From Longivirga aurantiaca (GTDB lineage Bacteria; Actinomycetota; Actinomycetes; S36-B12; CAIYMF01), in NCBI RefSeq assembly GCF_042660085.1, contig NZ_JBHSTI010000008.1:150001-182000 (forward strand): a stretch of 32,000 nt of DNA, read 5' to 3'. Below the pieces are notes generated by a model that saw only the letters and a program-made list of their open reading frames with translations, was not told where the DNA came from and made no database searches. Each line of letters begins with the position of its first letter. Position 1 is the stretch's first letter. Both the position numbers and the translations under genes were made by a program. This document shows, in pieces, positions 7,496 through 32,000 of this stretch.

Positions 7496-8214
7496 CCGAG
7501 TCCCACGACGACACCGCGGGCATCGTCCCGGTCGTGCCGGCCGGCGTCCCGACCCTCCCCGTCGTCGACGTCCGCACCGGCCTCTTCGGCGGCTCGGGCA
7601 CCGGCGACACCTCCGGCTTCGGCGGCCTCGTCCGCACCATCGAGTTCCCGCCCCCGAGCCCGCGCCCGTTCGGCGGCTGGTACGACGAGGTCGCGGACGA
7701 GCTCGACCTCGCGCTCCAGGAGGACGGCCTGTCGTTCGACGCCGCGGTCCTCGCGACGGTGGTGTCGAACGGCGAGATCACGTTCCACGTGCGCGCCGAG
7801 CACCTGCTCGCGTTCGTCCAGCGTCTGCGCGACGAGTCCGCGCTGCGCTTCGAGATGTGCCTCGGCGTCTCCGGCGTCCACTACCCGCACATGACGGGCG
7901 CGGAGTTCCACGCCGTGTGGCACTTCCAGTCGGTCACGTTCAACCGCCGTATCCGCGTCGAGGTCTCGGCCCCGGCCGAGCACCCGCACGTGCCCAGCAT
8001 CGTGTCGGTCTACCCGGCCGACGACTGGCACGAGCGCGAGGCGTTCGACATGTTCGGCATCGTCTTCGACGGCCACCCCGGTCTCACCCGCATCCTCATG
8101 CCGGACGACTGGTACGGCTTCCCCCAGCGCAAGGACTACCCGCTCGGCGGGATCCCGGTGGAGTACAAGGGCGCCTCCATCCCGCCGCCCGACACGCGGA
8201 GGTCGTACACCTGA
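7492..8214 (+). CDS. nuoC: NADH-quinone oxidoreductase subunit C
   Basis: The GTG at 7492 overlaps the nuoB stop (GTGA). The product contains [31 protein letters not shown]...RKDYPLGG, the 30-kDa subunit signature. It is in frame with the 3' part of track ORF 7024..8214. Confidence 0.95.
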
Positions 8215-9587
8215 TGGCCGACGTCACCTACGAGTCCGCGTACGACGACATCCTCGGCGAGACCGAGGGTCCCGAGGCGGGCAGCTACGACACCACCGAG
8301 GGACGCGTCTACACCGTCACCGGCGGCGACTGGGACGAGGTCCTGGCGCCCGAGTCCGGCGTCAAGGAGCGCGTCGTCGTCAACATGGGCCCCCAGCACC
8401 CGTCGACGCACGGCGTGCTGCGCCTCATCCTCGAGATGGAGGGGGAGGTCATCACCGAGGCCCGCTGCGGCATCGGCTACCTCCACACCGGCATCGAGAA
8501 GAACCTCGAGTACCGCACCTGGGTGCAGGCCGTGCCCTACGTGACGCGCATGGACTACCTCGCGCCGATCGCCAACGAGGCCGGCTACTGCCTCGCGGTC
8601 GAGAAGCTGCTCGGCATCGTCGACAAGGTGCCCGAGCGCGCGCAGCTCATGCGCGTCATCACCCTCGAGCTCAACCGCATGGGGTCGCACCTCGTCGCGC
8701 TCGCCACGGGCGGCTTCGAGATGGGCGCGCTCACCGCGATGACCAACGGGTTCCGCGACCGCGAGCTCACCCTCGACCTGCTCGAGATGATCACCGGCCT
8801 GCGCATGAACCACGCGTACATCCGCCCCGGCGGCGTCGCGCAGGACATGCCCGAGGGGGGCGTCCGCGACATCCGCGCGGCGATGGACAAGCTCGACCGC
8901 CAGCTCGACGGCGTGCCGCAGCTGCTGGTGAACAACAGCGTCTGGATGGACCGCACGTCCGGCATCGGGGTGCTCGACCTCGCCGGCTGCATGGCTCTCG
9001 GGATCACCGGCCCGGTGCTGCGCTCGACCGGTCTTCCGTACGACATCCGCAAGAGCGAGCCGTACTTCGGCTACGAGCAGTTCGACTTCGAGGTTCCGAC
9101 CGAGACCACGAACGACGTCTACGGCCGCTTCCTGATCCGTCTGCGCGAGCTCGACGAGTCCAAGAGGATCATCCGCCAGGCCTGCGACCTCCTCGAGAAG
9201 ACGCCCGGCCCGGTGATGATCGAGGACAAGAAGATCGGCTGGCCCTCTCAGCTCTCCATCGGCGGAGACGGCATGGGCAACTCCCTCGAGCACATCCGCC
9301 ACATCATGGGCGAGTCGATGGAGGCGCTGATCCACCACTTCAAGCTGGTCACCGAGGGCTTCCACGTCCCGGCGGGCCAGGCGTTCTCGCTCATCGAGGC
9401 GCCGCGGGGCGTCCTCGGGGTGCACGTGGTCAGCGACGGCAGCAACCGTCCGTACCGCGTGCACTTCCGCGACCCGTCGTTCAACAACCTGCAGGCGACG
9501 GCGGCGATGTGCGAGGGCGGCCAGGTGGCGGACGTGATCGGTGCGGTGGCGTCGATCGACCCCGTCATGGGCGGTGTGGACAGGTGA
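8214..9587 (+). CDS. nuoD: NADH-quinone oxidoreductase subunit D
   Basis: The ATG at 8214 shares its A with the nuoC stop TGA. The product contains [36 protein letters not shown] and [10 protein letters not shown]..., the 49-kDa subunit signature. Confidence 0.97.
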
Positions 9588-9724
9588 GGCGAGGAACGAG
9601 CCGAACGGCTCCGCAGCGAGGGGCCGGTGTGGACAGGTGAGGCGAGGAACGAGCCGAACGGCTCCGCACCGAGGGGCCGGTGTGGACAGGTGAGGCGAGG
9701 AACGAGCCGAACGGCTCCGCACCG
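9573..9724. repeat. 53-bp direct tandem repeat, about 2.9 copies, spanning the nuoD stop and the nuoD-nuoE spacer
   Basis: Copies lie at 9573-9625, 9626-9678 and 9679-9724. The unit is GGTGTGGACAGGTGAGGCGAGGAACGAGCCGAACGGCTCCGCA(G/C)CGAGGGGCC. Copy 1 and copy 2 differ at one base. Copy 3 is identical to copy 2 over 46 nt and then diverges. Confidence 0.95.
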
Positions 9725-9745
9725 GGATGCCAGGGTCGACCGCTG

Positions 9746-10474
9746 ATGAAGGCGACGGGGGCACGGACAACGACGGACGAGGCGAGAGAGACGACAGTGG
9801 ACGCAGGACTGACGGAGCAGACCCGCGCCGATGCGGTCGAGCTCGCGGGGCGCTACCCCGAGAGCCGCTCGGCGCTGCTGCCGATGCTGCACCTCGTGCA
9901 GTCGGCCGAGGGTCGGGTCACGCCCGCAGGCATCGCGCTGTGCGCGGAGGTCCTCGACCTCACCACCGCCGAGGTGGCCGCCGTCGCGACGTTCTACACG
10001 ATGTACAAGCGGCACAAGGTGGGTCGCTACCACGTGGGCGTGTGCACCAACACGCTGTGCGCCGTGCTCGGCGGAGACGCGATCTGGACGGCGCTGTCCG
10101 AGCGTCTCGGCGTCGGCCACGACGAGGTCACCGCCGACGGCACGATCTCGCTCGAGAGGATCGAGTGCCAGGCTGCCTGCACGCACGCCCCTGTGATGAC
10201 GGCCAACTGGGAGTTCCTCGACGACATGGACGTCCCGCGCGCCCTCGAGGTCGTCGAGAGGCTCAAGGCCGGCGAGGAGGTCTTCTCCACCCGCGGACCG
10301 CGCATCGGGACGTTCGAGGAGATCGAGCGCACGCTCGCGGGCTTCGAGGACGGCCTGGTCGCCGAGGGCCGCACCGATGCCCGGATGACCGCGGGCCTGG
10401 AGTACGCCAAGGCCAACGGCATGGCCGCCCCGGCCGGGCCCGCCACCTCGCCGCTCGTGAAGACGGAGGGCTGA
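9746..10474 (+). CDS. nuoE: NADH-quinone oxidoreductase subunit E (2Fe-2S)
   Basis: Contains [30 protein letters not shown] and [11 protein letters not shown], the NuoE Cys pattern. The start is uncertain. ATG at 9746 is given. GTG at 9797 ([10 protein letters not shown]...) is equally plausible. GTG at 9680 lies inside the repeat and is rejected. Confidence 0.88.
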
Positions 10475-10477
10475 GAC

Positions 10478-11782
10478 GTGCCGCTGACCCCGATCCTCAC
10501 CGCCCACTGGGACGAGGCCGACTCGCACACCCTCGAGGGCTACCGCCGCCACGGCGGCTACGACATGGTCCCCGTGACCTTCGGCGCCCACCCCGACGAG
10601 ATCATCGCCCTCGTCAAGGAGTCGGGCCTTCGCGGCCGCGGCGGTGCGGGCTTCCCCACCGGCATGAAGTGGGGCTTCGTCCCGCAGAACGACGGCAAGC
10701 CGCACTACCTCGTGATCAACGCCGACGAGTCCGAGCCGGGTGCCTGCAAGGACATCCCGCTCATGATGGCCAACCCGCACTCCCTCGTGGAGGGCTGCAT
10801 CCACGCGTCGTACGCGATCCGCGCCAACTACGCGTTCATCTACATCCGCGGCGAGGTGCCGCACGTGATCCGCCGCGTCACCGCCGCCGTGCGCGAGGCG
10901 TACGCCGCCGGGTTCCTCGGCAAGGACATCCTCGGATCGGGCTTCGACCTCGACATCGTCGTCCACTCGGGCGCGGGCGCCTACATCTGCGGCGAGGAGA
11001 CCGCGCTCCTCGACTCGCTCGAGGGCCGCCGCGGCCAGCCGCGCCTGAAGCCGCCGTTCCCCGCGGTGGCCGGCCTGTACGCCGCGCCCACGGTCATCAA
11101 CAACGCCGAGACGATCGCCAACATCCCCACGATCGTGCGCAACGGCGCCGAGTGGTTCAAGCAGTTCGGCACCGAGAAGTCGCCGGGCTTCAAGCTGTTC
11201 GCGGTGTCGGGCCACGTCCAGCGCCCGGGCATCTACGAGGCGCCGCTCGGCACCACGATGCGCGAGCTGCTCGAGTACGCCGGCGGCATGCGCGAGGGCC
11301 ACGAGCTGAAGTTCTGGATCCCTGGCGGCTCGTCCGTGCCGATGCTGCTCCCCGAGCACCTCGACACCCCGCTGACCTACGAGGACATGGCGGGCCTCGG
11401 CACGATGCTCGGCACGGGCACCCCGATGGTCTTCGACGAGACCACGAGCGTCGTGCGGGCGATCAGCCGCTGGATCCACTTCTACAAGCACGAGTCGTGC
11501 GGCAAGTGCACGCCGTGCCGCGAGGGCACGTTCTGGCTCGACCAGATGCTCGTGCGCTTCGAGAACGGCACCGCGGCGGAGGTCGACATCGACACCGTCG
11601 ACGACATCTGCAAGCAGATCTCGGGCCGTTCGTTCTGCGCTCTCGGGGATGCGGCCGCGACGCCGTACGCCCCGGCGCTCAAGTACTTCCGCGAGGAGTT
11701 CCTCGCGGGGACCCACACCCCGGCCGACCAGCTCTTCGATCCGGTCGCCGCCACCGTCTTCGCCGGAGCTGCAGCGCGATGA
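10478..11782 (+). CDS. nuoF: NADH-quinone oxidoreductase subunit F (FMN/NADH-binding)
   Basis: Contains [42 protein letters not shown] and [12 protein letters not shown]. Confidence 0.97.
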
Positions 11783-14262
11783 CCGTCACCTCATCGGGGC
11801 CGAACGCTCCCGCCACCACGCCGACCGACGGTGTCACGATCACCGTCGACGGCATCGACGTCGTCGTGCCCAAGGGCACGCTCGTCATCCGCGCCGCCGA
11901 GCAGCTCGGCATCGCCGTGCCGCGCTTCTGCGACCACCCGCTGCTCGACCCGGTCGCGGCGTGCCGCATGTGCCTGGTCGAGATCGAGGGCCAGCCCAAG
12001 CCTCAGCCCGCGTGCGCCATGACGGCCACCGAGGGCATGAAGGTCAAGACCCAGGTCACGTCCGAGATCGCCGAGGAGGCGCAGCAGGGCGTGATGGAGT
12101 TCCTCCTCATCAACCACCCGCTCGACTGCCCCGTCTGCGACAAGGGCGGCGAGTGCCCGCTGCAGAACCAGGCCATGTCGGCCGGCCGCGGCGAGTCCCG
12201 CTTCGACGCCGTGAAGCGCACGTTCCCCAAGCCGATCAACGTCTCGGCGCAGATCCTGCTGGACCGCGAGCGCTGCGTCTCCTGCGCGCGCTGCACGCGC
12301 TTCGCCGAGCAGATCGCCGGCGACCCGTTCATCGACCTCCTCGAGCGCGGTGCCCAGCAGCAGGTCGGCATCTCCTCCGACCAGCCGTTCGACTCGTACT
12401 TCTCCGGCAACACCGTGCAGATCTGCCCCGTCGGTGCGCTCACGAGCGCGAAGTACCGCTTCCGCTCGCGCCCCTTCGACCTCGTCTCGACCCCGACCGT
12501 CTGCGAGCACTGCGCCTCGGGCTGCAGCCTGCGCACCGACGTGCGTCGCGAGACGATCATGCGCCGCCTGGCGTGGGACGAGCCCGCGGTGAACGAGGAG
12601 TGGAACTGCGACAAGGGCCGCTTCGCGTTCGGGCACCTGCAGGACGGCCGCATCGAGCACCCGCTCGTCCGTGAGGCCGACGGCATCCTCGTCACCGCGT
12701 CCTGGCCCGAGGCCATCACGATCGCCGCCGAGGGCCTGCGTGCCGCAGGTGCCGCGACGGCGGTGCTGCCCGGTGGCCGGCTCACCGTCGAGGACGCCTA
12801 CGCCTGGGCGAAGTTCGCCCGCGTCGCCCTCGGCACCGACGACATCGACTTCCGTGCGCGTCCGGCGTCCGCCGAGGAGTCCGCGTTCCTCGCCGCCGTG
12901 GTGGCCGGTCGTCCGACGGGTCCGACGTACGCCGACCTCGAGGCTGCTCCGGTCGTCGTGCTCGCCGGGCTCGACGCCGAGGACGAGTCTCCGATGGTCT
13001 TCCTGCGCCTGCGCAAGGCTGCGCGCACCCAGGGCGTGCAGGTCTTCTCGGTCGCCCCGTTCGCCTCGGCCGGTGTCACCAAGGCCAAGGGCAAGGTGCT
13101 CGCGACCGCGCCGGGCGCCGAGGCGGCCACGCTCGACTCGCTCGCCGACGAGGCAGGGCAGAGCGGCGACCTCGCTGCCGCTGCCGCACTGCTGCGCCAG
13201 CCGGGCGCCGTCGTCCTGGTGGGCGAGCGCCTCGCGCAGTCCGCAGGTGCGCTGTCCGCCGCCGCCCGGCTCGTCGCGGCCACCGGCGCCTCGCTCGGCT
13301 GGGTCCCGCGCCGTGCGGGCGAGCGCGGTGCGCTCGACGCCGGTGCCCTCACCGGCCTGCTGCCGGGTGGCCGTCCGCTCGCGAACGACACCGCGCGTGC
13401 CCAGGTGGCAGCGGTCTGGGGCGTCGACCCCGCATCGCTCCCCACCGAGACCGGCCGTTCGCTGGCCGAGGTCGTCGAGGCGGTCACCGCCGACCGCGAC
13501 GCCCTTTCTGCAGCCTCCGACCCGTCCGAGGTCGACCGCTCCGTGAAGGCGCTGCTGGTGGGCGGCGTCGAGGCCGCCGACCTCGCCGACCCCGCAGGCT
13601 TCCTCGCCGCCGTCGAGTCGGTGCCGTTCGTGGTGTCGCTCGAGCAGCGGCACTCGGAGGTCACCGCCCTCGCCGACGTCGTCCTCCCGGTCGGTACCGC
13701 CGCCGAGAAGGCAGGCACCTACCTCGACTGGGAGGGGCGTCCGCGCCAGTTCGCCCGCGTGTTCACCTCCTCGCTCGCGCTGTCCGACGCCCGCGTCCTC
13801 GCGATGCTCGCCGACGAGGCCGACATCGACTTCGGCCGCGGCGACGTCGCGGCGCTGCGCGCCGAGATCGCCGCGATCGGCGCCTGGGACGGCGAGCGCG
13901 CCGAGGCCCCGAGCGTGGCACCCGCCGCGACGCCCGAGGTGGGCGACGGCGAGGCCGTCCTCGCCACCTGGCGCCAGCTCCTCGACCACGGACTCCTGCA
14001 GGAGGGCGACCCCTACCTGCAGGCGACCGCGCGCACCGCGGTGGCACGCGTGTCGCAAGCGACGGCCGAGCGCGTCGGCGCCGTCGACGGGGGCGGGCTC
14101 ACGGTGTCGACCGACTCCGGCTCGCTCACCCTTCCCGTGGTGGTCACCGCGATGCCGGACGGCGTCGTCTGGCTCCCGGCCAACTCCGACGGGTCCACGC
14201 CGCGCGCCACCCTCGGCGCCGGCCATGGCGATGTCGTGCGCATCGCAGGAGGTGCGGCGTGA
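11779..14262 (+). CDS. nuoG: NADH-quinone oxidoreductase subunit G
   Basis: The ATG at 11779 overlaps the nuoF stop (ATGA). The product contains [49 protein letters not shown] and CPVGALT, followed by a molybdopterin-like domain. It corresponds to the 3' 827 codons of track ORF 9727..14262. Confidence 0.97.
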
Positions 14263-15638
14263 ACGCTCTGGCTGCGGCAGCGGGCGACCTGTCCATCTTC
14301 GGGCAGGACCCGTTCTGGCTCACCCTCATCAAGTGCCTGGTCGTCTTCCTCGCGCTGATCCTGCTCACGCTCTTCACGACGTGGTTCGAGCGCAAGGTCG
14401 TCGCGCGCATGCAGCAGCGCTCCGGCCCGAACCGCTGGGGCCCCTTCGGCCTTCTGACGCCGATCTACGACGGCATCAAGCTCGCCCTCAAGGAGGGCAT
14501 CACCCCGGCGAACTCCGACAAGCTCGTCTACCTGATCGCACCGGCGATCTCGGCCATCTCGGCGTTCCTGGTGTTCGCGGTGATCCCGGTCGGGCCGGTC
14601 GTGTCGATCTTCGGAGTCGAGACCCCGCTGCAGCTCACCGACTTCCCCGTGTCGGTGCTCTACGTCCTGGCGATCGCCTCGATCGGCATCTACGGCATCG
14701 TGCTCGCCGGTTGGTCGTCGGGCTCGACGTACTCCCTCCTCGGCGGCCTGCGCTCGAGCGCCCAGATGATCTCGTACGAGATCGCGATGGGCCTGTCGTT
14801 CGTGGCGGTGTTCCTCTACTCGAGCTCCGCGTCGACCTCGCAGATCGTGGCCAAGCAGGCCGAGACGTTCTCCCTCGGCGGCCTCGAGCTCAACAGCTGG
14901 TTCGCGCTGCTGCTGCCGGTGTCGTTCGTGATCTACCTGATCGCGATGGTGGGCGAGACCAACCGCGCTCCGTTCGACCTCCCCGAGGCCGAGGGCGAGC
15001 TCGTCGCCGGGTACTTCACCGAGTACTCCGGTCTGCGCTGGGCGTCGTTCTACCTCGCCGAGTACATCAACATGATCAACGTGTCGGCCGTGGCCACCAC
15101 GCTGTTCCTCGGCGGCTGGGCGATGCCCGCACCGATCTCCACCATCTGGCCCGGCGCCAACGAGGGCTGGTGGCCGGTCCTGTGGTTCGTCCTCAAGATC
15201 TACGCGATGCTCTTCGTGTTCGTCTGGCTCCGCGGCACGCTGCCGCGCCTGCGCTACGACCAGTTCATGAAGTTCGGCTGGCGCGTGCTGATCCCCGTGT
15301 CGATCGTGTGGATCCTGCTCGTGGCCTCGGTCCGCGCCCTCACGAACCAGTCCGACTTCGAGCTGCGTCCGTTCCTCCTCTGGGGCGGACTCATCCTCGC
15401 GGTGGTGGCGGTGTTCGCGTTCGTCCTCGACGTGCGAGGCGGCTCGAAGACGGACGACGACGCCGAGCCCGAACCGTTCGACCCGTTCGCGGGCGGTCAC
15501 CCCGTCCCGCCCCTGCCCGGTCAGGAGCTCATCGTGACCCGTCGCGCCAAGGCGACCGTCACCACAGCCGTCACCGCCCGGGACTCCACGTCCCAGGCTG
15601 ATGCCGGCACCGAGGGGGAGGAGAGCGCCCATGAGTGA
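14259..15638 (+). CDS. nuoH: NADH-quinone oxidoreductase subunit H
   Basis: GTGA overlap with nuoG. The product contains [23 protein letters not shown], a polytopic membrane profile, [21 protein letters not shown] and [12 protein letters not shown]. It has an acidic, Pro-rich C-terminal tail. Confidence 0.97.
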
Positions 15639-16224
15639 CGAGCGCCGGTTCTTCCGCGGGTTCGGTGTGCCGTTCACCCAGATGTTCAAGCGGGTGGTCA
15701 CCGAGCAGTACCCGGACGTCAAGACGCCGGTCCGCCCGCGCTACCACGGCCGCCACCAGCTCAACCGTCATCCCGACGGCCTCGAGAAGTGCGTCGGCTG
15801 CGAGCTGTGCGCGTGGGCCTGCCCCGCGGACGCGATCTACGTCGAGGGCGCGGACAACACCGAGTCCGAGCGCTTCAGCCCCGGCGAGCGCTACGGCCGC
15901 GTCTACCAGATCAACTACCTGCGCTGCATCTTCTGCGGCCTGTGCATCGAGGCGTGCCCGACCCGCGCGCTCACGATGACCAACGAGTACGAGCTCGCCG
16001 ACGACAACCGCCAGGACCTCATCTACGAGAAGAAGGACCTGCTGGGCCCGCTCCTCCCCGGGATGGCGGCGCCGCCGCACGCGATGGTGCCGGGGACGAC
16101 CGAGACCGACTACTACCTCGGCAAGGTCACGGGTGCTGTCGCGGTGCAGATCGGCGAGGTCGAGGCCCGCCGCGCCGGCACCTGGACCGGTCCCGCGGCC
16201 GACGACGAAGAGGTGACCGCATGA
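15631..16224 (+). CDS. nuoI: NADH-quinone oxidoreductase subunit I (2x[4Fe-4S])
   Basis: The ATG at 15631 is preceded by GAGGGGGAGGAGAG and overlaps the end of nuoH by 8 nt. The product contains [12 protein letters not shown] and [12 protein letters not shown]. The longest-ORF start at 15601 is less likely. Confidence 0.95.
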
Positions 16225-17075
16225 CCTCGCTCCTCTCGGCCGTCGAGACCACCGGCAACACCGGCGAGCAGATCGTGTTCTGGATCTGCGCGTTCGTGGC
16301 TGTCGCCGGCGCGCTCGGCATGCTGCTGTCGAAGAAGGCGGTGCACAGCGCGCTGTCGATCGCCGCGACGATGATCAGCCTGGCCGTCCTCTACGTCGCT
16401 CTCGAGGGCCCGTTCCTCGGCATGGTGCAGATCATCGTCTACACCGGCGCCGTCATGATGCTGTTCCTCTTCGTGCTCATGATCGTCGGCGTCGACTCCA
16501 ACGACTCGCTCGTGGAGACGATCAAGGGTCAGCGCGCGGCTGCGGTGCTCTTCGCGCTGGGCTTCGCCGGCCTGCTCGTCACGGGCGTCGGCTCGGCCAT
16601 GGTCTCGGACGCGCAGGGCCTCGGCGTCGCCAACACGGTCGACGGCGGCAACGTCCAGGGCATCGCGCGGCTGATCTTCGGCCGCTACGTCCTCGCCTTC
16701 GAGGTCACCTCGGCGCTGCTCATCACCGCAGCCCTCGGCGCGATGGTGCTCGCCCACCGCGAGCGCGCCACGCCGCGCAAGACCCAGGCCGAGCTGGCGG
16801 CCGAGCGCGTGCGCTCCGGCCACGCCCAGAACCTCCCCGGCCCCGGCGTCTACGCCCGCCACAACGCGGTCGGCACCCCGGCGCTGCTGCCCGACGGCAC
16901 GCCCACCGACCGCTCGGTGCCCGAGCCGCTGCGCGGCGTGAGCGAGCGGGTCGGCGTCGACCACGCGGACACGCGCCGCGTCAACGCGCTCGCCCAGGGC
17001 GGCGCGGTCGGCGAGGACCCCGAGCACCCGCTCGGTGCCGAGGACATCGCCCACGAGGAAGGCGGTCACCGATGA
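16221..17075 (+). CDS. nuoJ: NADH-quinone oxidoreductase subunit J
   Basis: The ATG at 16221 overlaps the nuoI stop (ATGA). The product contains [30 protein letters not shown]...[19 protein letters not shown] and a long hydrophilic C-terminal extension. Confidence 0.95.
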
Positions 17076-17371
17076 ACCCGTCGAACTACCTCTACCTCTC
17101 GGCGATCCTGTTCAGCATCGGTGCGCTCGGCGTGCTGGTGCGACGCAACGCGATCGTGGTGTTCATGTGCGTCGAGCTCATGCTCAACGCGTCGAACCTC
17201 GCGTTCGTCTCGTTCGCCCGGGTCCACGGCAACCTCGACGGCCAGGTCATCGCGTTCTTCGTGATGGTGGTCGCGGCAGCCGAGGTCGTGATCGGTCTCG
17301 CGATCATCATGACGATCTTCCGTACCCGCCGGTCGGCCTCGGTCGACGAAGCCAACCTGCTGAAGTACTAA
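17072..17371 (+). CDS. nuoK: NADH-quinone oxidoreductase subunit K
   Basis: The 99-aa product contains [35 protein letters not shown]...[15 protein letters not shown] overlap with nuoJ. Confidence 0.97.
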
Positions 17372-17384
17372 GGGGTCTGACGTC

Positions 17385-19316
17385 GTGTCACCGTTCTCGG
17401 GCGGGCTCGCCACCGTCGCCGAGGTCGCCACAGCGACCGAGGCGAGCGGGGTGTTCGCGCTGACCTGGCTGCTCGTCGGGCTGCCGTTGCTGGGAGCCGC
17501 CGTGCTCCTGCTCGGCGGTCGGCGCACCGACCGCTGGGGCCACTGGCTCGGCGTGCTCATGTCCGGCGGCTCGTTCGTCGTCGCCGTCCTCATCTTCTTC
17601 GGCATGCTCGGCCGGAGCCCGGAGGACCGCACGATCACCCAGCACCTCTTCGACTGGATCGCGGTCGGCACGTTCAACGTGCCGTTCGACCTGCGTGTCG
17701 ACCAGCTGTCGATGACCTTCGTGCTGCTGATCACCGGGGTCGGCACGTTGATCCACATCTACTCCGTCGGCTACATGAGCCACGACCACGACCGTCGTCG
17801 CTTCTTCGCCTACCTCAACCTGTTCGTCGCGTCGATGCTCCTGCTCGTCCTCGCGAACAACTACCTCCTCCTCTACGTCGGGTGGGAGGGCGTCGGTCTC
17901 GCGTCGTACCTGCTGATCGGCTTCTGGTTCTACAAGGACTCCGCGGCCGTCGCGTCGAAGAAGGCCTTCGTCGTCAACCGCGTCGGCGACGTCGGCCTGT
18001 CGCTCGCCGTGATGCTGATGTTCGTCACCTTCGGATCGGTCACGTTCGACGGCGTCCTCACCAACGCGGCGAGCGCGAGCGAGTCGCAGCTGACCTGGAT
18101 CGGCCTCGCCCTCCTGCTCGCGGCGTGCGGCAAGTCGGCGCAGTTCCCGCTGCAGTCGTGGCTGCTCGACGCGATGGAGGGCCCGACCCCGGTCTCGGCC
18201 CTCATCCACGCGGCGACGATGGTCACCGCCGGCGTCTACCTGATCGCGCGCTCGAACGCGATCTTCGACGCCGCCCCGACCGCGCAGACCGCCGTGGTGA
18301 TCATCGGTGCGATCACGCTCCTCATGGGTGCGGTGATCGGGTCGGCGAAGGACGACATCAAGAAGGCCCTCGCCGGATCGACGATGAGCCAGATCGGCTA
18401 CATGGTGCTGGCCGCGGGTCTCGGCCCGGTCGGCTACGTGTTCGCGATCTTCCACCTGCTCACGCACGGCTTCTTCAAGGCCACGATGTTCCTCGGTGCG
18501 GGCTCGGTCATGCACGGCATGAACGACAACGTGAACATGCGCAGGTACGGCGGGCTCCGTGCGGTCATGGTGGTCACCTGGATCACGTTCATGGCCGGCT
18601 ACCTCGCCATCCTCGGCATCCCGCCGTTCGCAGGCTTCTTCTCCAAGGACAAGATCATCGAGGCGGCGTTCTCCGCGAACACGCTCACGGGCCTGGTCAC
18701 GCTGCTCGGCGCGGGCATCACGGCGTTCTACATGACCCGCCTCGTGGCGATGACCTTCTTCGGGAAGGCCCGCTGGGAGGACGACGCGCACCCGCACGAG
18801 TCGCCCGGCATCATGACCGGCCCGATCGCGGTGCTGGCGTTCCTCTCGACCGTCGGCGGCTTCCTGCTCGCCTTCAACAACACGATCGAGCACTGGCTCG
18901 AGCCGGTGCTGCCGTTCGAGGAGCCCGTCCTCCCGGTGCCGATCGCGGTCCTCACGTTCGTGACGCTCGCCGTGGTGGTCGTCGGCGCCGTGCTCGGCTG
19001 GGTGCTCTACGCCCGCCGGTCCGTCCCGGTCGTGGCGCCCGCGGGCAACGTGCTGACACGCGCCGCCCGCGCCGACCTCTACGGCGACGCGTTCAACGAG
19101 GCGGTGTTCATGCGCCCGGGCCAGTACCTCACCCGGTGGCTGGTCTGGTTCGACAACCGCGTGGTCGACGGCGTCGTCAACGGCGTCGCGGCGACGATCG
19201 GCGGTCTCTCCGGCCGGTCGAGGCGCCTGCAGACGGGCTTCACGCGCTCGTACGCGCTGTCCATGCTCGGCGGTGCCGCTCTCGTGGTCTTCGCCCTCGT
19301 CCTGGTGAGGCTGTAG
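17385..19316 (+). CDS. nuoL: NADH-quinone oxidoreductase subunit L (antiporter-like)
   Basis: The 643-aa polytopic product contains [59 protein letters not shown] and a C-terminal lateral-helix region. Confidence 0.97.
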
Positions 19317-19318
19317 CC

Positions 19319-20860
19319 ATGACCTTCAACTGGCTCCTCGTGCTGTTCCTCGCGCCGCTCGTCGGCGCGGCGGTGGTCATGCTGCTCCCCAGGAGCAACC
19401 CCACGCTGGCCAAGCAGGTCGGCATCGGGTTCTCGCTGCTGACGTTCCTCATCACGATCGCGGCCGCGCTGAAGTTCGACGCCTCCATGGCGGCCGACTT
19501 CCAGCTCGGGTTCTCGTACTCCTGGATCCCGTCGTTCGGTGTGAACTTCGCGATGGGCCTCGACGGCATCGCGCTCGTGCTCGTCGCGCTCTCCACCTGC
19601 CTCGTCCCCGTGGTGCTGCTCGCCGGCTGGGACGACGCCGACGGAGCCCGCGGCTCGGTCAAGGGCTACGTCGCGCTGATCCTGGTGCTCGAGGCGGCGA
19701 TGATCGGTGTCTTCGCAGCCACCGACGTCTTCCTGTTCTACGTGTTCTTCGAGGCCATGCTCGTGCCGGTCTACTTCCTGATCGGCCGGTACGGCGGCCC
19801 GCGCCGCAACTACGCCGCGGTGAAGTTCCTGCTGTACAGCCTCTTCGGCGGCCTGCTCATGCTGGCCTCGCTGATCGGCCTGTACGTCGTGTCCGCCGAG
19901 CAGCTCGGCACCGGCACCTTCGACTTCACGGCGCTCGCCGGCCTCACGATCGACCCGGACACGCAGAAGTGGCTGTTCGTCGGCTTCTTCATCGCGTTCG
20001 CGATCAAGGCCCCGCTCGTGCCGTTCCACACCTGGCTGCCGGACGCTGCTGCGGAGTCGACCCCGGGCACCGCGGTGCTCCTCGTCGGCGTGCTCGACAA
20101 GGTCGGCACGTTCGGCATGCTGCGCTACTGCCTCGAGCTGTTCCCCGAGGCGTCCACCTGGGCGACGCCGCTCGTCATCGCGCTCGCGGTGATCGGCATC
20201 ATCTACGGCGCGCTCCTCGCCATCGGCCAGCAGGACATCAAGCGCCTCATCGCCTACACGTCGGTGTCGCACTTCGGCTTCATCGCGCTCGGCATCTTCG
20301 TCATGACCTCGCGCGGCCAGAGCGGCTCGGCGCTGTACATGGTCAACCACGGGTTCTCGACGGCGGCGCTCTTCCTCATCGGCGGCTTCCTCATCAGCCG
20401 CCGCGGCTCGCGCCTCATCGACGACTTCGGCGGCGTCCAGAAGGTGGCCCCCGTCCTCGCGGGCACCTTCCTCGTCGCGGGCCTGTCGTCGCTGGCGCTC
20501 CCCGGCCTGTCGAGCTTCGTGAGCGAGTTCCTGGTGCTGCAGGGCACGTTCGAGCGCTACCCGTGGATCGGCGTCGTGGCCACTCTCGGCATCGTGCTCG
20601 CCGCGCTCTACATCCTGCTCATGTACCAGCGGACGATGACGGGCGAGCCGCCCGAGATCGTCAAGGAGAGGGTCGGCGACCTGCGGGGCCGTGAGGTCGT
20701 CGCGATCGCCCCGCTGCTGGTCGTCATCGTCGCGCTGGGCTTCTACCCGAAGCCCGTGCTCGACGTCATCAATCCGGCTGTCGACCGCGTGATGATCGCC
20801 GTCGACGCCACCGACCCGGCGCCCCTGGTGGCACCGGTCGCAGAAGGGGCACAGCCGTGA
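19319..20860 (+). CDS. nuoM: NADH-quinone oxidoreductase subunit M (antiporter-like)
   Basis: The ATG at 19319 lies 2 nt after the nuoL stop. The product contains FLFYVFFEAMLVPVYFLIG, FAIKAPLVPFHTWLPDA and YTSVSHFGF. It corresponds to the 3' 513 codons of track ORF 17882..20860. Confidence 0.97.
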   Translation: MTFNWLLVLFLAPLVGAAVVMLLPRSNPTLAKQVGIGFSLLTFLITIAAALKFDASMAADFQLGFSYSWIPSFGVNFAMGLDGIALVLVALSTCLVPVVLLAGWDDADGARGSVKGYVALILVLEAAMIGVFAATDVFLFYVFFEAMLVPVYFLIGRYGGPRRNYAAVKFLLYSLFGGLLMLASLIGLYVVSAEQLGTGTFDFTALAGLTIDPDTQKWLFVGFFIAFAIKAPLVPFHTWLPDAAAESTPGTAVLLVGVLDKVGTFGMLRYCLELFPEASTWATPLVIALAVIGIIYGALLAIGQQDIKRLIAYTSVSHFGFIALGIFVMTSRGQSGSALYMVNHGFSTAALFLIGGFLISRRGSRLIDDFGGVQKVAPVLAGTFLVAGLSSLALPGLSSFVSEFLVLQGTFERYPWIGVVATLGIVLAALYILLMYQRTMTGEPPEIVKERVGDLRGREVVAIAPLLVVIVALGFYPKPVLDVINPAVDRVMIAVDATDPAPLVAPVAEGAQP

Positions 20861-22416
20861 GCGCCATCCTCGCCGCCACGGGGTCCTTCGAGGTCCCCAC
20901 GATCGAGTACGCGGCGCTCGCACCGATCCTGATGGTGCTCGGCGGCGCGGTCGTGTCGGTCCTGCTCGAGGCGTTCCTGCCGCAGCGGCTTCGTCGGCCG
21001 GTCCAGCTCACGCTGACGTTCGCAACGCTCGTCGCGGCCTTCGTGTTCGTCGTGCTCGCGCGCGGCACGCGGGCGATCGTCGCGGAGGGCTCGGTCGCCG
21101 TCGACGGTCCCACGCTGTTCATGCAGGGATCGATCCTGGTCCTCGCCTTCATCGCCGCCCTGGTGATGGCCGAGCGGCAGGTCGACCCGGCGGGCGACGC
21201 CTTCGCCCCTCGCGCCTCGGCACTCCCCGGATCGGAGGAGGAGCAGGAGTTCACGCGCCTCGGCTGGTTCCAGACCGAGGTGTGGCCGCTGTTCCTCTTC
21301 AGCGTCGGCGGCATGCTGCTGTTCCCGGCGTCGACCGACCTGCTCACGATGTTCGTGGCGCTCGAGGTGCTCTCGCTCCCGCTCTACGTGCTCGCGGGTC
21401 TCGCCCGTCGCCGTCGCCTGCTGTCGCAGGAGGCCTCGCTGAAGTACTTCGTGCTCGGCGCGTTCTCCTCGGCGTTCTTCCTCTACGGCACCGCGCTGCT
21501 GTACGGCTTCGCCGGCACCGTCGAGCTCAGGGGCATCGCGAACGCGCTGACGGCCTCGGCAGGTCAGAGCGGTCTCGTGATCGCCGGCACCGCGCTGCTG
21601 ATGGTCGGTCTGCTGTTCAAGATCGGCGCCGCGCCGTTCCACCAGTGGACCCCGGACGTCTACCAGGGCTCGCCCACGTCCATCACCGGCTTCATGGCCG
21701 CCTGCACCAAGGTGGCGGCGTTCGGTGCGCTGCTCCGCGTCATGTACGTCGCCCTCGGCGGCATCCGCTGGGACTGGCGCCCGGTGATGTACGTGATCGC
21801 CGCTCTCACCATGATCGTCGGCACGATCTTCGCGCTCACCCAGACCGACATCAAGCGCATGCTCGCCTACTCGTCGGTCGCGCAGGCGGGCTTCATGCTC
21901 GTCGGCGTCCTCGCCACGAGCGCCGCGGGCCTCGCCGGCACGATGGTCTACCTCCTGGCCTACGGCGTGGCCACGGTCGGCGCGTTCGCCATCATCACCC
22001 TCGTCCGGGACGCCACCGGAGAGGCGACGCATCTGTCGTCCTGGGCCGGTCTCGGGAAGAAGTCGCCCTTGGTGGCCAGCGCGTTCGCGCTGTTCCTCCT
22101 GGCCTTCGCGGGCATCCCGCTCACCAGCGGCTTCACCGGAAAGTTCGCGGTCTTCACCGCGGGCATCGCGGGAGGTGCCACGCCGGTCGTCATCGTGGGT
22201 GTCGTGGCGAGCGCGGTCGCGGCGTTCTTCTACATCCGCGTCATCGTGCTCATGTTCTTCAACGAGCCGCCTGCGGACGGCGGCGCTAGCGTGGTCATCC
22301 CCAGCAGCTTCACCACGTTCGCCATCACCATCACCGTCGCGATCACGCTCGTGATCGGCGTGCTGCCGCAGATCGTGCTGCAGCTCGTCGACCAGGCCGG
22401 CGTGTTCGTCCGCTGA
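20857..22416 (+). CDS. nuoN: NADH-quinone oxidoreductase subunit N (antiporter-like)
   Basis: GTGA overlap with nuoM. The product contains MFVALEVLSLPLYVL, LKYFVLGAFSSAFFLYG, FKIGAAPFHQWTPDVYQGSPT and AYSSVAQAGF. Confidence 0.97.
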   Translation: MSAILAATGSFEVPTIEYAALAPILMVLGGAVVSVLLEAFLPQRLRRPVQLTLTFATLVAAFVFVVLARGTRAIVAEGSVAVDGPTLFMQGSILVLAFIAALVMAERQVDPAGDAFAPRASALPGSEEEQEFTRLGWFQTEVWPLFLFSVGGMLLFPASTDLLTMFVALEVLSLPLYVLAGLARRRRLLSQEASLKYFVLGAFSSAFFLYGTALLYGFAGTVELRGIANALTASAGQSGLVIAGTALLMVGLLFKIGAAPFHQWTPDVYQGSPTSITGFMAACTKVAAFGALLRVMYVALGGIRWDWRPVMYVIAALTMIVGTIFALTQTDIKRMLAYSSVAQAGFMLVGVLATSAAGLAGTMVYLLAYGVATVGAFAIITLVRDATGEATHLSSWAGLGKKSPLVASAFALFLLAFAGIPLTSGFTGKFAVFTAGIAGGATPVVIVGVVASAVAAFFYIRVIVLMFFNEPPADGGASVVIPSSFTTFAITITVAITLVIGVLPQIVLQLVDQAGVFVR

Positions 22417-25416: not shown

Positions 25417-26467
25417 TCAGGCGATTTCCCACGTGTCGCTGCCGGCGAGCAGGGAGCCGAGGTCGGCGCTGCCGCCGGCCTTGGCCGTGGCGAGCTGCGC
25501 CTGGAACATCGAGTCGTACGACGCCCGGGGCACGTCGCGGAACACGCCGATCGGAGTGTTCGCGAGCGTCATCGAGTCCGACAGCCGCGACAGCGCGAAC
25601 GCGGTCGAGGGGTCGGGGCGGTGGGCGTCGTGAACGAGGATGGCGTCGAGACCGACCTCGGCGACGTCCGCGACCTCGAGGCTGCCCTCGGCGTTGCGGA
25701 TCACCCCGCGGGTGCCGTCGACCAGCGTGATGGGCTGGCCGTGCTCGAGCCGCAGCGTGAGCGCGTCGCGGTGGTCGGAGTCCTTCAGCGGGTCCCACGC
25801 ACCGTCGTTGAAGATGTTGCAGTTCTGGTAGATCTCGACCAGCGCCGTGCCGTCGTGCAGCGCGGCCTGGCGCAGCGTCTCGGTGAGGTGCTTGCGGTCG
25901 GAGTCGATCGTGCGCGCGACGAACGACGCCTCCGCACCGATCGCGAGCGACACCGGGTTGAACGGGTGGTCCAAGGACCCCATGGGCGTCGACTTCGTGA
26001 CCTTGCCGACCTCGGACGTCGGCGAGTACTGCCCCTTGGTGAGGCCGTAGATCCGGTTGTTGAACAGCAGGATCTTGAGGTTCACGTTGCGGCGCAGCGC
26101 GTGGATGAGGTGGTTGCCGCCGATGGAGAGCGCGTCGCCGTCGCCGGTGACGACCCACACCGAGAGGTCGGGCCGGGTCATGGCGAGGCCCGAGGCGATC
26201 GCCGGGGCACGGCCGTGGATCGAGTGCATCCCGAAGGTGTTCATGTAGTACGGGAAGCGGCTCGAGCAGCCGATGCCGGAGATCCAGACGATGTTCTCCT
26301 TGGCGAGCCCGAGCTCGGGCATGAAGCTCTGGACGCCGGCCAGGATCGCGTAGTCACCGCACCCGGGGCACCAGCGCACCTCCTGGTCGGTCTTGAAGTC
26401 CTTCGCCGACTGCTTCCCGTCCGTCTTCGGGACGAGCTTCAGCGACGGGAAGCCCAGATCGACGGAC

Positions 26468-26475
<8 letters not shown>
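25417..26475 (-). CDS. korB: 2-oxoglutarate:ferredoxin oxidoreductase, beta subunit (KorB)
   Basis: Contains WCPGCGDYAIL, GIGCSSRFPYY and VTGDGDALSIGGNH (thiamine diphosphate-binding motif). The GTG start overlaps the korA end by 8 nt. Confidence 0.92.
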
Positions 26476-28324
<1,849 letters not shown>

Positions 28325-28515
28325 GGTGTCCTCGCCTTGCTGCGGCCGGGTGCGCCGGCGCTCCTGGGGAGTGGTGCTGGGACGACGGCCGGGCGGGCCC
28401 GGTCGTACGAGGCACCATCCTCCCGCGTGATGCCCCCTTTCGCGCGCACGGGTCCCGTCATCCGGACCGCGCGTCGCGATCTTCGCCGAGGGCGTAGCCG
28501 CGCGTCCGGCTCGCC

Positions 28516-28521
28516 TAGGCT
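28516..28521 (+). promoter_or_regulatory. Candidate -10 hexamer TAGGCT for the nuoB/C/I-like operon
   Basis: CGCC-TAGGCT-CTGCCG lies 43 nt upstream of the GTG at 28565. The purine-rich SD region GAGGAGAGCGAGG lies between them. Confidence 0.3.
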
Positions 28522-28564
28522 CTGCCGACAGGAGCGGCGAGAGCACGAGGAGAGCGAGGCGGAC

Positions 28565-29053
28565 GTGGCGGACGGCGATGTGCTGCTCGGCCTCCCCGGC
28601 CTCGGCCGGCCGGGCCCGGCAGCCCCCCTGCGGCTGACCGTGAGCCTCGACGGTGCCGACGACCGGGTCGTGGCCCTGCACGTCGCCGGCGCGGGGCTCG
28701 CCTGCTGCTCGGTGGAGCTCGTCGCGGCCGCCCTCCGGAGGCCGGAGGCCCGCGCCGCGGGGCTCGGCGAGGCCGATGCGGTGGCCCCGGCCGTGGACGT
28801 GATCGTCGTGTCCGGCACCTGCACCGACATCCTCGCGCCCGCGCTCGCCGCCCTGCACGCCGCGCTCCCCGTGGGCACGCCGGTGCTGTCGTTCGGCGCC
28901 TGCGCGAGCTCGGGCGGGCCCTACTGGGACTCGTACTCGGTCACCAAGGGCGTCGACCAGGTGATCCCCGTGGACGTCTACGTGCCCGGCTGCCCGCCGA
29001 GGCCCGAGGCGCTGGCCGACGGCCTGCGCCTCCTCCCAGGGGTGGCGCGGTGA
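28565..29053 (+). CDS. NuoB-family (Oxidored_q6-like) Fe-S protein, divergent paralog
   Basis: The 162-aa product contains [20 protein letters not shown] and [13 protein letters not shown]. By hand count the Cys spacing (C48 to C113 is 65, C113 to C143 is 30) nearly equals that of canonical NuoB in this window (65 and 29). It corresponds to the last 162 codons of track ORF 26393..29053. GTG at 28565 is preferred and 28579 is the alternative. Confidence 0.85.
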
Positions 29054-29592
29054 GCGCGGTGGTGGAGGCGGTCCAGGCGGGCGTCGGCGACTCCGTGCTC
29101 GCGGTCGTCCCCGGGTTCGGGCCGGTCACCGTCGACGTCGCGCCGTTGTCGTGGCACGAGGCCGTCGCAGCGGCCGCTGCCGCGGGGGCGACGTACGCCG
29201 ACGTCCTGACGGCGTACGACGAGCTCGAGCTCGGCTTCGCCGTGGTCGTCCACCTGTCGACGCCGGACGCGTCCGACCATGTGCTCCTGCGGACGCGGGT
29301 GCCGCGCGACCGGCCGGAGGTGGCGACCGTGGTCGACCTCTACCGCGGGCTGGCCTGGCACGAGCGCGCCACCCACGAGATGTTCGGCATCGGCTTCGTC
29401 GGCAACGACGACCTCTCCCCGCTCCGCACCCGGCCCTCGCTCGGCGCGCACCCGCTCCGCAAGGACTTCGTGCTCGCGGCGCGGGTGGCCCGGCCGTGGC
29501 CGGGGGAGAAGGACCCGGCGGGCGACACCGGGCGCGCCCGGCGCCGCACCCTTCCTCCCGGCGTGCCCGAGGGCTGGGGGGAGCAGGCATGA
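29050..29592 (+). CDS. NuoC-family (30-kDa subunit-like) protein, divergent short paralog
   Basis: GTGA overlap with the upstream gene. The 180-aa product contains [22 protein letters not shown]...HPLRKDF, which aligns to the canonical [22 protein letters not shown]...PQRKDY. Confidence 0.85.
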
Positions 29593-29993
29593 GCGAGGAC
29601 CAGGCGCCGGCGGCGACCGACGGCGGCGGCTACGCCGTACCCGCACGCAGCCGCGGCGTGATCACGCTCGTGGAGGAGAACTGCACGGTCTGCATGCTGT
29701 GCGCCCGCGAGTGCCCCGACTGGTGCATCCACATCGAGGGCCACACCGGAACCCTCCCGGCCGACGAGGTGCACCGCCGCCCGCGCACCGAGAACGTGCT
29801 CGACCGGTTCGCCATCGACTTCTCGCTCTGCCTCTACTGCGGCATCTGCATCGAGGTGTGCCCGTTCGACGCATTGCACTGGTCGCCCGAGCACGAGTAC
29901 GGCGGCACCTCGCTCACCGACCTCACGCACGAACGCGACCGCCTCGCCGCCTGGGAGGCCACCGCCCCCACCGACGCCGAGCGCGACGCCTGA
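29589..29993 (+). CDS. NuoI-like 2x[4Fe-4S] ferredoxin-domain protein, short paralog
   Basis: ATGA overlap with the upstream gene. The 134-aa product has [12 protein letters not shown] and [12 protein letters not shown] with NuoI-like spacing. It lacks the canonical NuoI N-terminal segment. It corresponds to the 3' part of track ORF 29151..29993. Confidence 0.85.
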
Positions 29994-30141
29994 CCCAGCC
30001 CGGGGTCAGCGGTGAGGGGGGCCTTCATCCAGAACCCCGGCCTCGATCTGCGAATCCGTCGTCTCCCGGCCCGCCGACGGCCCCGGAAGCGACGGCTTCA
30101 CAGATCGACAGCGGGGCGGGGCAGCCCGCGCGGAGCGGCGA

Positions 30142-30633
30142 CTAGCGGTAGTTCACGAACTGGACGGCGAAGTCGAGGTCGGCGTCGCGCACGAGCGACT
30201 GCACGGCCTGGAGGTCGTCGCGGCTCTTGGAGGTCACGCGGAGCTCCTCGCCCATGACCTGCGCCTTGACCGTCTTGGGGCCCTCGTCGCGGATGAGCTT
30301 GCCGAGCTTCTTGGCCTGCTCCTGGTTGATGCCGGCCTGGAAGGTCATCGAGATCTTGTACTCCTTGCCCGAGGAGCGGGGGTCATCGGCCTTGAGCGAC
30401 TTCAGCGAGAGCTGGCGCTTGACGAGCTTGTCGCGGAAGACCTCGAGGGCGGCTGCGGCGCGCTCCTCGGTGGAGGAGGTGATCTCGACCGCGAGCTCGC
30501 CCTTCCACTCGATCGTGGTGCTCGTGTTCTTGAAGTCGAACCGCTGCGAGAGCTCCTTCGCCGCCTGGTTGAGCGCGTTGTCGACCTCCTGGCGGTCGAC
30601 CTTGCTGACGATGTCGAAGCTGCTGTCGGCCAT
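30142..30633 (-). CDS. yajQ: YajQ-family (UPF0234) nucleotide-binding protein
   Basis: The 163-aa product reads [35 protein letters not shown]...VQFVNYR, which is typical YajQ from end to end. Confidence 0.9.
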
Positions 30634-30740: not shown

Positions 30741-30822
30741 GGCGGGTTGCCCGAGCGGCCAATGGGAGCGGACTGTAAATCCGTCGGCTTTGCCTTCGAT
30801 GGTTCGAATCCATCACCCGCCA
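30741..30822 (+). tRNA. tRNA-Tyr (anticodon GTA), type II with long variable arm
   Basis: Hand-folded cloverleaf. The acceptor stem is GGCGGGT/ACCCGCC plus discriminator A, and the D stem is CCCG/TGGG. The anticodon stem is GCGGA/TCCGT with loop CTGTAAA. There is a 13-nt variable arm, and the T arm is GATGG-TTCGAAT-CCATC. CCA is not encoded. Confidence 0.95.
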
Positions 30823-30828
30823 CACGGC

Positions 30829-31953: not shown

Positions 31954-32000
31954 GCCCCCATAGCTCAGTCGGCAGAGCGTCTCCATGGTAAGGAGAAGGT
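31954..32000 (+). tRNA. tRNA-Thr (anticodon GGT), 5' 47 nt only; truncated by the window end
   Basis: GCCCCCA-TA-GCTC-AGTCGGC-AGAGC-G-TCTCC-ATGGTAA-GGAGA-AGGT. The D arm and a 5-bp anticodon stem flank the loop ATGGTAA, giving anticodon GGT. The layout is close to known bacterial tRNA-Thr(GGU). Confidence 0.85.

Follow-up and report, generated by a model that had tools for sequence, protein, structure and literature searches.

Why an actinobacterium with a complete operon for respiratory complex I should keep a second, three-gene set of complex I-like genes close by is the question raised by the stretch of Longivirga aurantiaca DNA considered here (the window, 32 kb in all, positions 150,001 to 182,000 of contig NZ_JBHSTI010000008.1). 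Towards the end of the window lie three coupled open reading frames (ORFs), here called B2, C2 and I2 and collectively the triad, whose products resemble the NuoB, NuoC and NuoI subunits of complex I, and which a sequence-only reading of the window had taken for an orphan set outside the known complex I and group 4 hydrogenase architectures. That reading placed the genes, their overlaps and their flanks correctly, and the complete canonical operon that it reported is likewise borne out:

28565-29053, forward strand: B2, NuoB-like, GTG start, 162 aa; N2-type [4Fe-4S] subunit.
29050-29592, forward strand: C2, NuoC/30-kDa-like, GTG start, 180 aa; cofactor-less.
29589-29993, forward strand: I2, NuoI-like, ATG start, 134 aa; two [4Fe-4S] clusters.
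25417-28327, reverse strand: korB-korA, divergent 5' neighbour of the 2-oxoglutarate:ferredoxin oxidoreductase type (PF01558, PF01855 and PF02775 in relatives).
30142-30633, reverse strand: yajQ, convergent 3' neighbour (PF04461 in relatives).
6504-22416, forward strand: canonical nuoA-N (A-J by Pfam; K-N by translation, tblastn and relatives' gene calls).
8214-9587, forward strand: canonical NuoD (Pfam), the sole NuoD in the window.

The start codon of C2 overlaps the stop codon of B2 (GTGA, 29050-29053) and that of I2 overlaps the stop of C2 (ATGA, 29589-29592); korA itself runs on the reverse strand from about 28327 down to 26468, and the spacing is 237 bp from korA to B2 and 148 bp from I2 to yajQ. 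As had been claimed, the triad has no gene for NuoD, NuoH or an antiporter-like subunit next to it: the tblastn search was empty between the flanks, with no match to NuoA, H, J, K, L, M or N between korA and B2 or between I2 and yajQ, and the window's only genes for NuoD, NuoH and antiporter-like subunits are those of the canonical nuoA-N operon. The triad proteins are 34% (B), 29% (C) and 36% (I) identical to their canonical counterparts in the same window.

Phylogeny and gene order show that the triad is the orthologous remnant (B2, C2 and I2) of nuo2, the second nuo cluster of Streptomyces and other actinomycetes, and that the derived feature of the window is the loss of A2, H2 and J2-N2, so that its supposed place outside the known architectures falls away. 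A search of the protein database with C2 returned 782 homologs, nearly all of about 180-240 aa and from Actinomycetota, and the first distant homolog looked up, from Catenuloplanes nepalensis (53% identity), lies in a second nuo cluster of the order B..C-H..I-J-K-L-M-N followed by a convergent yajQ. A genome scan with a C2 protein alignment, taking one genome per species, found relatives in 585 genomes; 80 loci were returned from these and annotated by tblastn with all Nuo proteins of the window, and the total set comprises about 90 loci (L001-L093), each covering 10 kb on either side of C2 and many of them from metagenome-assembled genomes. The dominant layout is korB-korA on the reverse strand, then A2-B2-C2-H2, 0-8 kb of unrelated genes and I2-J2-K2-L2-M2-N2, then yajQ on the reverse strand, and it is found in Streptomyces, Micromonospora, Actinomadura, Nonomuraea, Streptosporangium, Planomonospora, Kribbella, Jiangellaceae and others. 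By tblastn, about half of the 80 genome loci have KorA/KorB upstream of A2/B2 (in Micromonospora there is no korAB in the 10 kb around the clusters), and yajQ stands after N2 in full clusters, for example L002, L029, L072, L078 and L081, and after I2 in triad-only loci. The large-scale gene order of the window is that of L067, a metagenome-assembled genome in which canonical nuoMN is followed by a polyprenyl synthase gene, korBA and a full nuo2. C2 of the window is 46-62% identical to nuo2 C2 proteins, as against 29% to canonical NuoC.

The absence of NuoD from the locus belongs to the whole family. It had been held that NuoB is paired with a NuoD homolog in the second Streptomyces cluster, but tblastn (E <1e-4) found no homolog of NuoD, NuoE, NuoF or NuoG in the 10 kb on either side of C2 at about 90 loci, and in Streptomyces nuoA2, nuoB2 and nuoH2-N2 are reported to be contiguous and nuoD2 to be located elsewhere in the genome (PMC3765725; PMC8388888). 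Because no member of the nuo2 family has a NuoD in cis, the missing D is an ancestral trait of the family and not a peculiarity of the window. The gene that follows B2 in the nuo2 operon is the C-like gene, which the Streptomyces transcriptome papers leave unnamed (PMC3765725; PMC8388888); a complex I-like operon with C and without D is in itself unusual. A hidden NuoD-like gene between H2 and I2 was considered and rejected, the GC3-based gene calls in that gap (GC3 being the G+C fraction at third codon positions) corresponding to unrelated, mostly opposite-strand, lineage-specific genes and the NuoD tblastn being empty across the same set of loci. The H2/I2 junction is a recurrent insertion hot spot of 0-8 kb that splits the operon into A2B2C2H2 and I2-N2 units (for example at L004:11594-15009 and L068:11480-19900, and also at L010, L031 and other full nuo2 loci); the gap is absent from the Streptomyces locus L070, and in Micromonospora B2 is displaced 3-5 kb upstream of C2. 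In the literature we found no paper on a B-C-I-only form, on the C-like gene as an integral member of nuo2 or on the family-wide lack of D in the operon. The nuo2 operon is already known, though uncharacterised, and its B-C-I-only version is new.

The reduced form recurs in relatives, where a survey of gene neighbourhoods finds the same B-C-I tricistron conserved and under purifying selection. The gene order common to these triad-only relatives is nuoLMN-polyprenyl synthase-EamA-korBA, then B2-C2-I2, then yajQ-SDR-rpmG...secE-nusG (SDR, short-chain dehydrogenase), and identity of their C2 to that of the window is 83% in L084/85, 80-81% in L086/87 (in which I2 was not gene-called and is present by tblastn), 77% in L001, 63% in L092, 60% in L093, 58% in L091, 57-60% in L089/90 (KorA 85%) and 56% in the P0067 locus, where korAB is not adjacent. 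At the last of these, a lineage seen on 19 contigs, the triad comes directly after EamA; retention of the triad is therefore independent of an adjacent korAB. In a neighbour-joining tree of concatenated B, C and I proteins (70 taxa, with the canonical copies as distant outgroup) the eight triad-only lineages that include the window are monophyletic (97% bootstrap) and sister to the full-cluster locus L088 (92% support), and two further triad-only loci, L019 and L063, fall outside this clade among full-cluster lineages. A KorA+KorB tree, which served as a species proxy, also places L019 and L063 apart from the window clade, with L063 beside the full-cluster locus L061 and L019 basal to an Actinoallomurus/Streptosporangiales group. 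On these trees, reduction to B-C-I took place in the window clade (at least eight lineages) and independently in at least two other lineages, that is, at least three times. Since H2 and J2 flank I2 in the ancestral gene order, each triad needs separate deletions on both sides of I2 in addition to the loss of A2, and it is hard to explain why the same three genes should have been spared at least three times without selection for them.

A further and different state of reduction is seen at L079:10001-15270, which holds C2, an ABC-transporter-like gene (607 aa), an I2 with truncated N-terminus, an HtpX-like gene and then yajQ, with no B2 within 10 kb and neither H2 nor J2-N2. An HtpX/M48-type peptidase gene stands between I2 and yajQ in several loci (L019:11556-12494, L063:11090-11977, L079:13602-14498 and L086:11044-12195) and is absent in the window; it is probably nothing more than a conserved neighbour. 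The full-cluster sister L088 shows split tblastn matches in J2, L2 and M2 (12134-16627) and in yajQ (18260-18752). It was considered as an intermediate in decay of the membrane arm and is not used as evidence here, the broken yajQ favouring indel errors of long-read assembly.

It is clear that the three genes are maintained as genes. At about 72% G+C the window is rich in long spurious ORFs, yet GC3 is 0.96 in each triad ORF, near the 0.97-0.99 of korA, yajQ, nuoB and nuoD, and just 0.54-0.81 in the overlapping alternative and antisense ORFs at the triad; the triad reading frames are the coding ones. The ratio of nonsynonymous to synonymous substitution rates (dN/dS), calculated by the method of Nei and Gojobori (NG86), is 0.14-0.22 for B2, 0.17-0.29 for C2 and 0.08-0.18 for I2 in close pairs (95-97% KorA identity), beside 0.08-0.12 for KorA, 0.14-0.22 for EamA and 0.12-0.22 for SDR, and in deeper pairs it rises to as much as 0.3-0.5 for the triad genes. 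Frameshifts and stops are absent in eight lineages whose divergence reaches about 85% KorA and 54-64% triad identity, the eight sequenced lineages of the window clade (8/8) have open frames throughout and retain each of the twelve Fe-S cysteines, and the 4-bp start/stop overlap is kept in 8/8 for B/C and in 6/8 for C/I. The triad genes are not pseudogenes, and they are under purifying selection. The possibility that the locus is a decayed remnant of a set with adjacent NuoD/NuoH/NuoL-like genes, raised by the sequence-only reading against its own proposal, is therefore half right: most Actinomycetota do have H2 and J2-N2 alongside, but what is left at the window is maintained rather than decayed.

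The family assignments made from sequence hold when profiles are applied to the three proteins, all of which pass the Pfam domain thresholds: B2 belongs to Oxidored_q6 (PF01058, 8e-19), C2 to Complex1_30kDa (PF00329, 9e-24), and I2 carries two Fer4 domains. Against the narrower NCBIfam models, B2 scores 117 bits for the NuoB subfamily NF005012 (cut-off 116) and 114 bits for TIGR01957 (below its cut-off of 143), and the best matches of the other two are also sub-threshold, C2 with NuoC_fam at 60 bits (cut-off 122) and I2 with NuoI TIGR01971 at 68.5 bits (cut-off 113). Hydrogenase small-subunit models score merely 12-21 bits against the triad. I2 matches the PorD/KorD delta-subunit model TIGR02179 at 40.8 bits, under the cut-off of 60.05 and lower than the NuoI models. 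The ligands and cores reported earlier are all present: B2 has the four N2-cluster cysteines (C47, C48, C113 and C143), I2 has two CxxCxxCxxxCP motifs (C32/35/38/42 and C81/84/87/91), and C2 has the WHERE..HEMFG core. B2 has an additional cysteine, C86 (28820-28822, motif SGTCTD), which occurs in the triad clade and in the full-cluster sister L088, the other B2 proteins having SGTVTD. C2 also carries a conserved C-terminal tail that includes RRR..PPGVP..W, and both core and tail are kept in full-cluster and triad groups; the AlphaFold (AF2) model of C2 is a confident NuoC fold (residues 1-125 with a per-residue confidence, pLDDT, >90), its tail falling below 60, as would be expected for a segment that becomes ordered only on a partner. 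The best structural matches of C2 are the NuoC/30-kDa subunits of complex I. Among solved homologs, B2 is closest to NuoB/PSST of complex I (3.5e-27, compared with about 1e-16 for MbhJ/HycG), C2 matches complex I at 2.5e-25 and the MbhK/HycE type at 8.5e-8, and the single-stretch PDB matches of I2 are to NuoI/TYKY of complex I (about 1e-11). Because the triad proteins are nearer in sequence to complex I than to subunits of Mbh or FHL, the nuo2 family derives from a true complex I and not from a hydrogenase-type relative.

Divergence within the triad clade is uneven and falls mainly on the parts of B2 beside its tandem cysteines and on the N-terminal helix of I2. Full-cluster B2 is near-invariant across the phylum. 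When regional mean pairwise identity is compared between 59 full-cluster and eight triad-clade sequences, it drops from 0.93 to 0.35 in the segment before the tandem cysteines (CC), from 0.89 to 0.41 in the loop after CC and from 0.83 to 0.37 in the C-terminal helix, but only from 0.99 to 0.90 in the GLACC motif and from 0.94 to 0.89 in the block around the cluster on its N2 side. The loss of the SxWP and RYDLxRFG motifs noted in the sequence-only reading is real; it is a feature specifically of triad-only lineages, since full-cluster B2 keeps both motifs near-invariant. In the independently reduced L063 and L019 the B2 loop is 0.65-0.68 identical to that of full-cluster relatives, the same trend at an earlier stage. 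I2 of every inspected full cluster begins with a GLAKGLAVTLRTM....QYPD..PD segment, the N-terminal helix; all triad-type I2 proteins, including those of L019, L063 and L079, start just before LPPRSRGVI and have no such helix, as would be expected if deletion of H2 had also taken the 5' end of I2. In complex I structures the stretches of NuoB on either side of the tandem cysteines (the 'PSST loop') line the quinone channel and touch NuoH/ND1, and the N-terminal helix of NuoI/TYKY lies on the membrane arm facing NuoH; the N2-side surface of B2 corresponds to the face directed toward NuoD. Mapped in this way onto complex I, the mosaic reads as loss of the NuoH/quinone-channel interface with the cluster-binding core and the NuoD-facing surface kept.

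We therefore consider it fairly probable that this nuo2 remnant is kept as a detached electron-transfer module with three [4Fe-4S] clusters, whose partner is not encoded at the locus. Three separate deletions would have occurred in the window lineage, one of A2, one of J2-N2 and one that took H2 and the 5' end of I2. The genes of the three remaining hydrophilic subunits would then have come together as a single, translationally coupled tricistron with a promoter of its own; the products are presumably still made, and they remain under selection. B2 with its one N2-type cluster, I2 with its two and the cofactor-less C2 may make up a small complex, in which electrons would run from the I2 clusters to that of B2, the path that they follow in complex I, and C2 with its conserved tail would be the scaffold for the two Fe-S subunits. 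Such a module would be soluble or only peripherally attached, having no NuoH-type membrane seat and no quinone channel, and candidates for its partner are a NuoD-type protein (canonical NuoD or an unlinked D2) and the adjacent KorAB. As the N2-side, NuoD-facing surface of B2 is still highly conserved, the partner may be a NuoD-type or other redox protein whose gene lies elsewhere. The soluble module suggested by the sequence-only reading thus survives as the best mechanistic guess. A more far-reaching form of the proposal, in which B2-C2-I2 is a free-standing soluble redox protein with three [4Fe-4S] clusters that was carved at least three times from a membrane-bound complex I-like enzyme and never needs the proton-pumping arm, is one we put forward tentatively and regard as somewhat doubtful. 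The candidate expression signals that go with the tricistron are the following:

28516-28521, forward strand: TAGGCT, a -10-like box that precedes the start codon of B2 by 43 nt; putative promoter element.
28547-28559, forward strand: purine-rich GAGGAGAGCGAGG, 5-18 nt upstream of the GTG at 28565, as read from the sequence.

The actinobacterial -10 box is of the type TANNNT. When the korA-B2 intergenic regions of the window, L001, L084 and L086 are aligned, the block CTCGCCTAGGCTCTG is conserved, and TAGGCT is also present in L089 and L093, a pattern of conservation that suggests a promoter of the triad's own. The GAGGAGAGCGAGG segment is likely to be the B2 ribosome-binding region. At L001 an IS481-family transposase gene (rve, LZ_Tnp_IS481; L001:8393-9355) is inserted between korA and B2, and the TAGGCT box and triad downstream of it are intact.

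Of the other explanations, the best surviving holds that B2, C2 and I2 are isoforms that replace NuoB, NuoC and NuoI in canonical complex I under some condition, sharing the NuoD, NuoH and antiporter-like subunits encoded 7-22 kb upstream. The canonical nuoA-N operon is there to be shared, in the window and also, undamaged, in every triad-only relative whose visible DNA includes it; the NuoD-facing N2-side surface of B2 is still 0.89 conserved; and a family without its own D in cis could plausibly borrow one throughout. Docking on NuoH, however, should preserve the very elements that contact it in complex I, and these B2 segments and the I2 helix varied or were deleted after the loss of H2. 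This weakens the idea of plug-in subunits that had been offered alongside the soluble module, and with identity to the canonical copies at just 29-36% we judge it unlikely.

Somewhat harder to sustain is a split system, in which H2, J2-N2, A2 and possibly NuoD2 are encoded elsewhere and the triad is still part of a full nuo2 complex. The visible part of the genome is 32 kb, and nuo2 genes do become separated: Dactylosporangium L026 and L055 have L-M-N-yajQ apart from B-C-H, B2 is displaced in Micromonospora by the 3-5 kb already mentioned, and nuoD2 is reported to be unlinked in Streptomyces (PMC3765725; PMC8388888). Had H2 merely moved, however, constraint would be expected to persist as it does in Micromonospora and Dactylosporangium, and it is only in triad-only lineages that B2 shows its mosaic relaxation and I2 has lost its N-terminus. 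When H2 of L088 was compared with the protein database, none of the 120 best matches (0/120) lay on a triad-lineage contig, a weakly negative result given that the list was saturated with matches all at least 75% identical. Taken together these points make a dispersed but complete nuo2 complex rather improbable.

The neighbouring korBA genes suggest a third possibility, that the I2 and B2 clusters take electrons from the two-subunit KorAB, which lacks a ferredoxin-like delta subunit. KOR enzymes of the two-subunit type depend on an external ferredoxin, both nuo2 and the triad have korBA as their conserved divergent neighbour in many lineages, and the match of I2 to the PorD/KorD model, at 40.8 bits against a cut-off of 60, points the same way. 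That match is nonetheless of the kind expected from generic similarity between proteins with two [4Fe-4S] clusters, Micromonospora clusters do without korAB within 10 kb, and a functional coupling is downgraded because the P0067 lineage keeps its triad with no korAB alongside and because the adjacency is part of a long conserved block (nuo-polyprenyl synthase-korBA-nuo2-yajQ-rpmG-secE-nusG) that may be just inherited gene order. We think this very unlikely. That the triad is a non-functional remnant in slow decay, kept by chance or through polar or regulatory effects, is hardly credible: amino-acid change is much faster than in full clusters and neighbouring genes, motifs have been lost, B2 is gone from L079 and nuo2 as a whole is missing from many actinobacteria, but dN/dS stays well under 1 for each of the three genes in every pair, the eight diverged lineages are free of frameshifts and stops, the start/stop overlaps are conserved along with all 12 Fe-S cysteines, and the same three genes were spared in at least three independent reductions.

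The proposal of a retained, detached module has to be set against several findings that weigh on the other side. Constraint on the triad is strongly relaxed, and its function may be minor or dispensable: relative to that of KorA, the dN of B2 is 3.2-8.9 in the triad clade and 0.0-0.3 in full-cluster pairs, in which the dN/dS of B2 is merely 0.00-0.07, with corresponding figures of 1.6-3.7 and 0.1-1.1 for I2 and of 3.4-8.5 and 1.3-2.9 for C2, and dN/dS between the window and L092 is about 0.5. In complex I, NuoB, NuoC and NuoI all pack against NuoD, and we know of no NuoB-NuoC-NuoI assembly without it. An unlinked NuoD2, H2 or antiporter set may exist beyond the 32-kb window, and the promoter of the triad is a putative one, marked by the conserved TAGGCT box. 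The phylogeny too has its weak points, in that the KorAB tree groups L091 with L088 and that neighbour-joining trees of short, fast-evolving proteins are open to long-branch attraction, which could inflate the monophyly of the triad clade.

Comparison with known systems is instructive in placing the triad. With nuo2 of Streptomyces and other actinomycetes it shares orthologous B2, C2 and I2, the slot between korAB and yajQ and the lack of D, E, F and G in the operon; it differs in having no A2, H2, J2, K2, L2, M2 or N2, in an I2 without the N-terminal helix and a B2 without the conserved segments flanking CC, and in the joining of its genes as one overlapping tricistron. The Q-module of complex I (NuoB, C, D and I) offers the same three families, the same N2-type and N6a/N6b-type ligands and the closest solved homologs, whereas the triad has no NuoD in cis and no adjoining NuoH, and its channel-lining and NuoH-facing elements have diverged or been deleted. 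The 11-subunit relatives of complex I (Campylobacter Nuo, cyanobacterial NDH-1 and archaeal Fpo) resemble it in lacking NuoEFG, which implies another electron donor, but they keep NuoD, NuoH and antiporter-like subunits, of which the triad locus has none; partial relatives of this NuoEFG-less kind are regarded as functional and not degenerate (PMC4453560). Complexes of the group 4 [NiFe]-hydrogenase type (Mbh, Mbx/Mbs, FHL/Hyc, Ech and Ehr) likewise contain NuoB-, NuoC- and NuoI-like proteins, but all of them have a large subunit homologous to NuoD together with membrane subunits, and the triad resembles MbhJ/K and HycG/E far less closely than it does complex I; a large subunit (a homolog of NuoD, HycE or MbhL) is absent from the triad locus and from every related locus examined. 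Marine actinomycetes (Salinispora, Streptomyces SM17/SM18 and Kocuria flava) carry a partial nuoA-(hypothetical)-HJKLMN operon that has been discussed as an accessory module (PMC6676996). As annotated, that operon has membrane subunits only, the mirror image of the hydrophilic-only triad of the window.

Complex I and its relatives are viewed as modular, with the NuoB-NuoD pair regarded as their invariant heart. Here is a large actinobacterial family (at least 585 genomes) with complex I-like operons that have C and lack D in the operon, and several of its lineages dropped all seven membrane subunits and kept exactly the three hydrophilic ones under selection. This amounts to a natural experiment, indicating that selection can act on B-C-I as a unit with its own role and pointing to the surfaces that serve the membrane arm, and it provides a small, three-protein target for learning the role of the enigmatic nuo2 in Streptomyces and its relatives. 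Were the module indeed free-standing, it would represent a new class of soluble electron carrier or adaptor derived from complex I. As the full nuo2 operon is also without NuoD, the NuoB-C-I unit could assemble or work without the 49-kDa subunit; such independence from NuoD would contradict an obligate NuoB-NuoD pair, and current views of how complex I evolved and of its minimal functional unit would have to be revised. With its ancestry clear and its missing D inherited, the triad is less mysterious than it first seemed, and its recurrent, selected retention makes it more than a decayed remnant.

A few features of the window remain to be recorded. A scan of 28200-30300 for sigma-70 promoters and intrinsic terminators gave no match, the models being generic and uninformative for an actinobacterium at 72% G+C, and in an Rfam scan of the window tRNAs alone were matched. 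A tRNA-Tyr gene (anticodon GTA) lies at 30741-30823 on the forward strand, between yajQ and the short-chain dehydrogenase gene, and the 5' part of another tRNA gene is found at the window edge (31954-32000, forward strand). At the opposite end, positions 1-6500 upstream of nuoA are very G+C-rich, at 74-77%.

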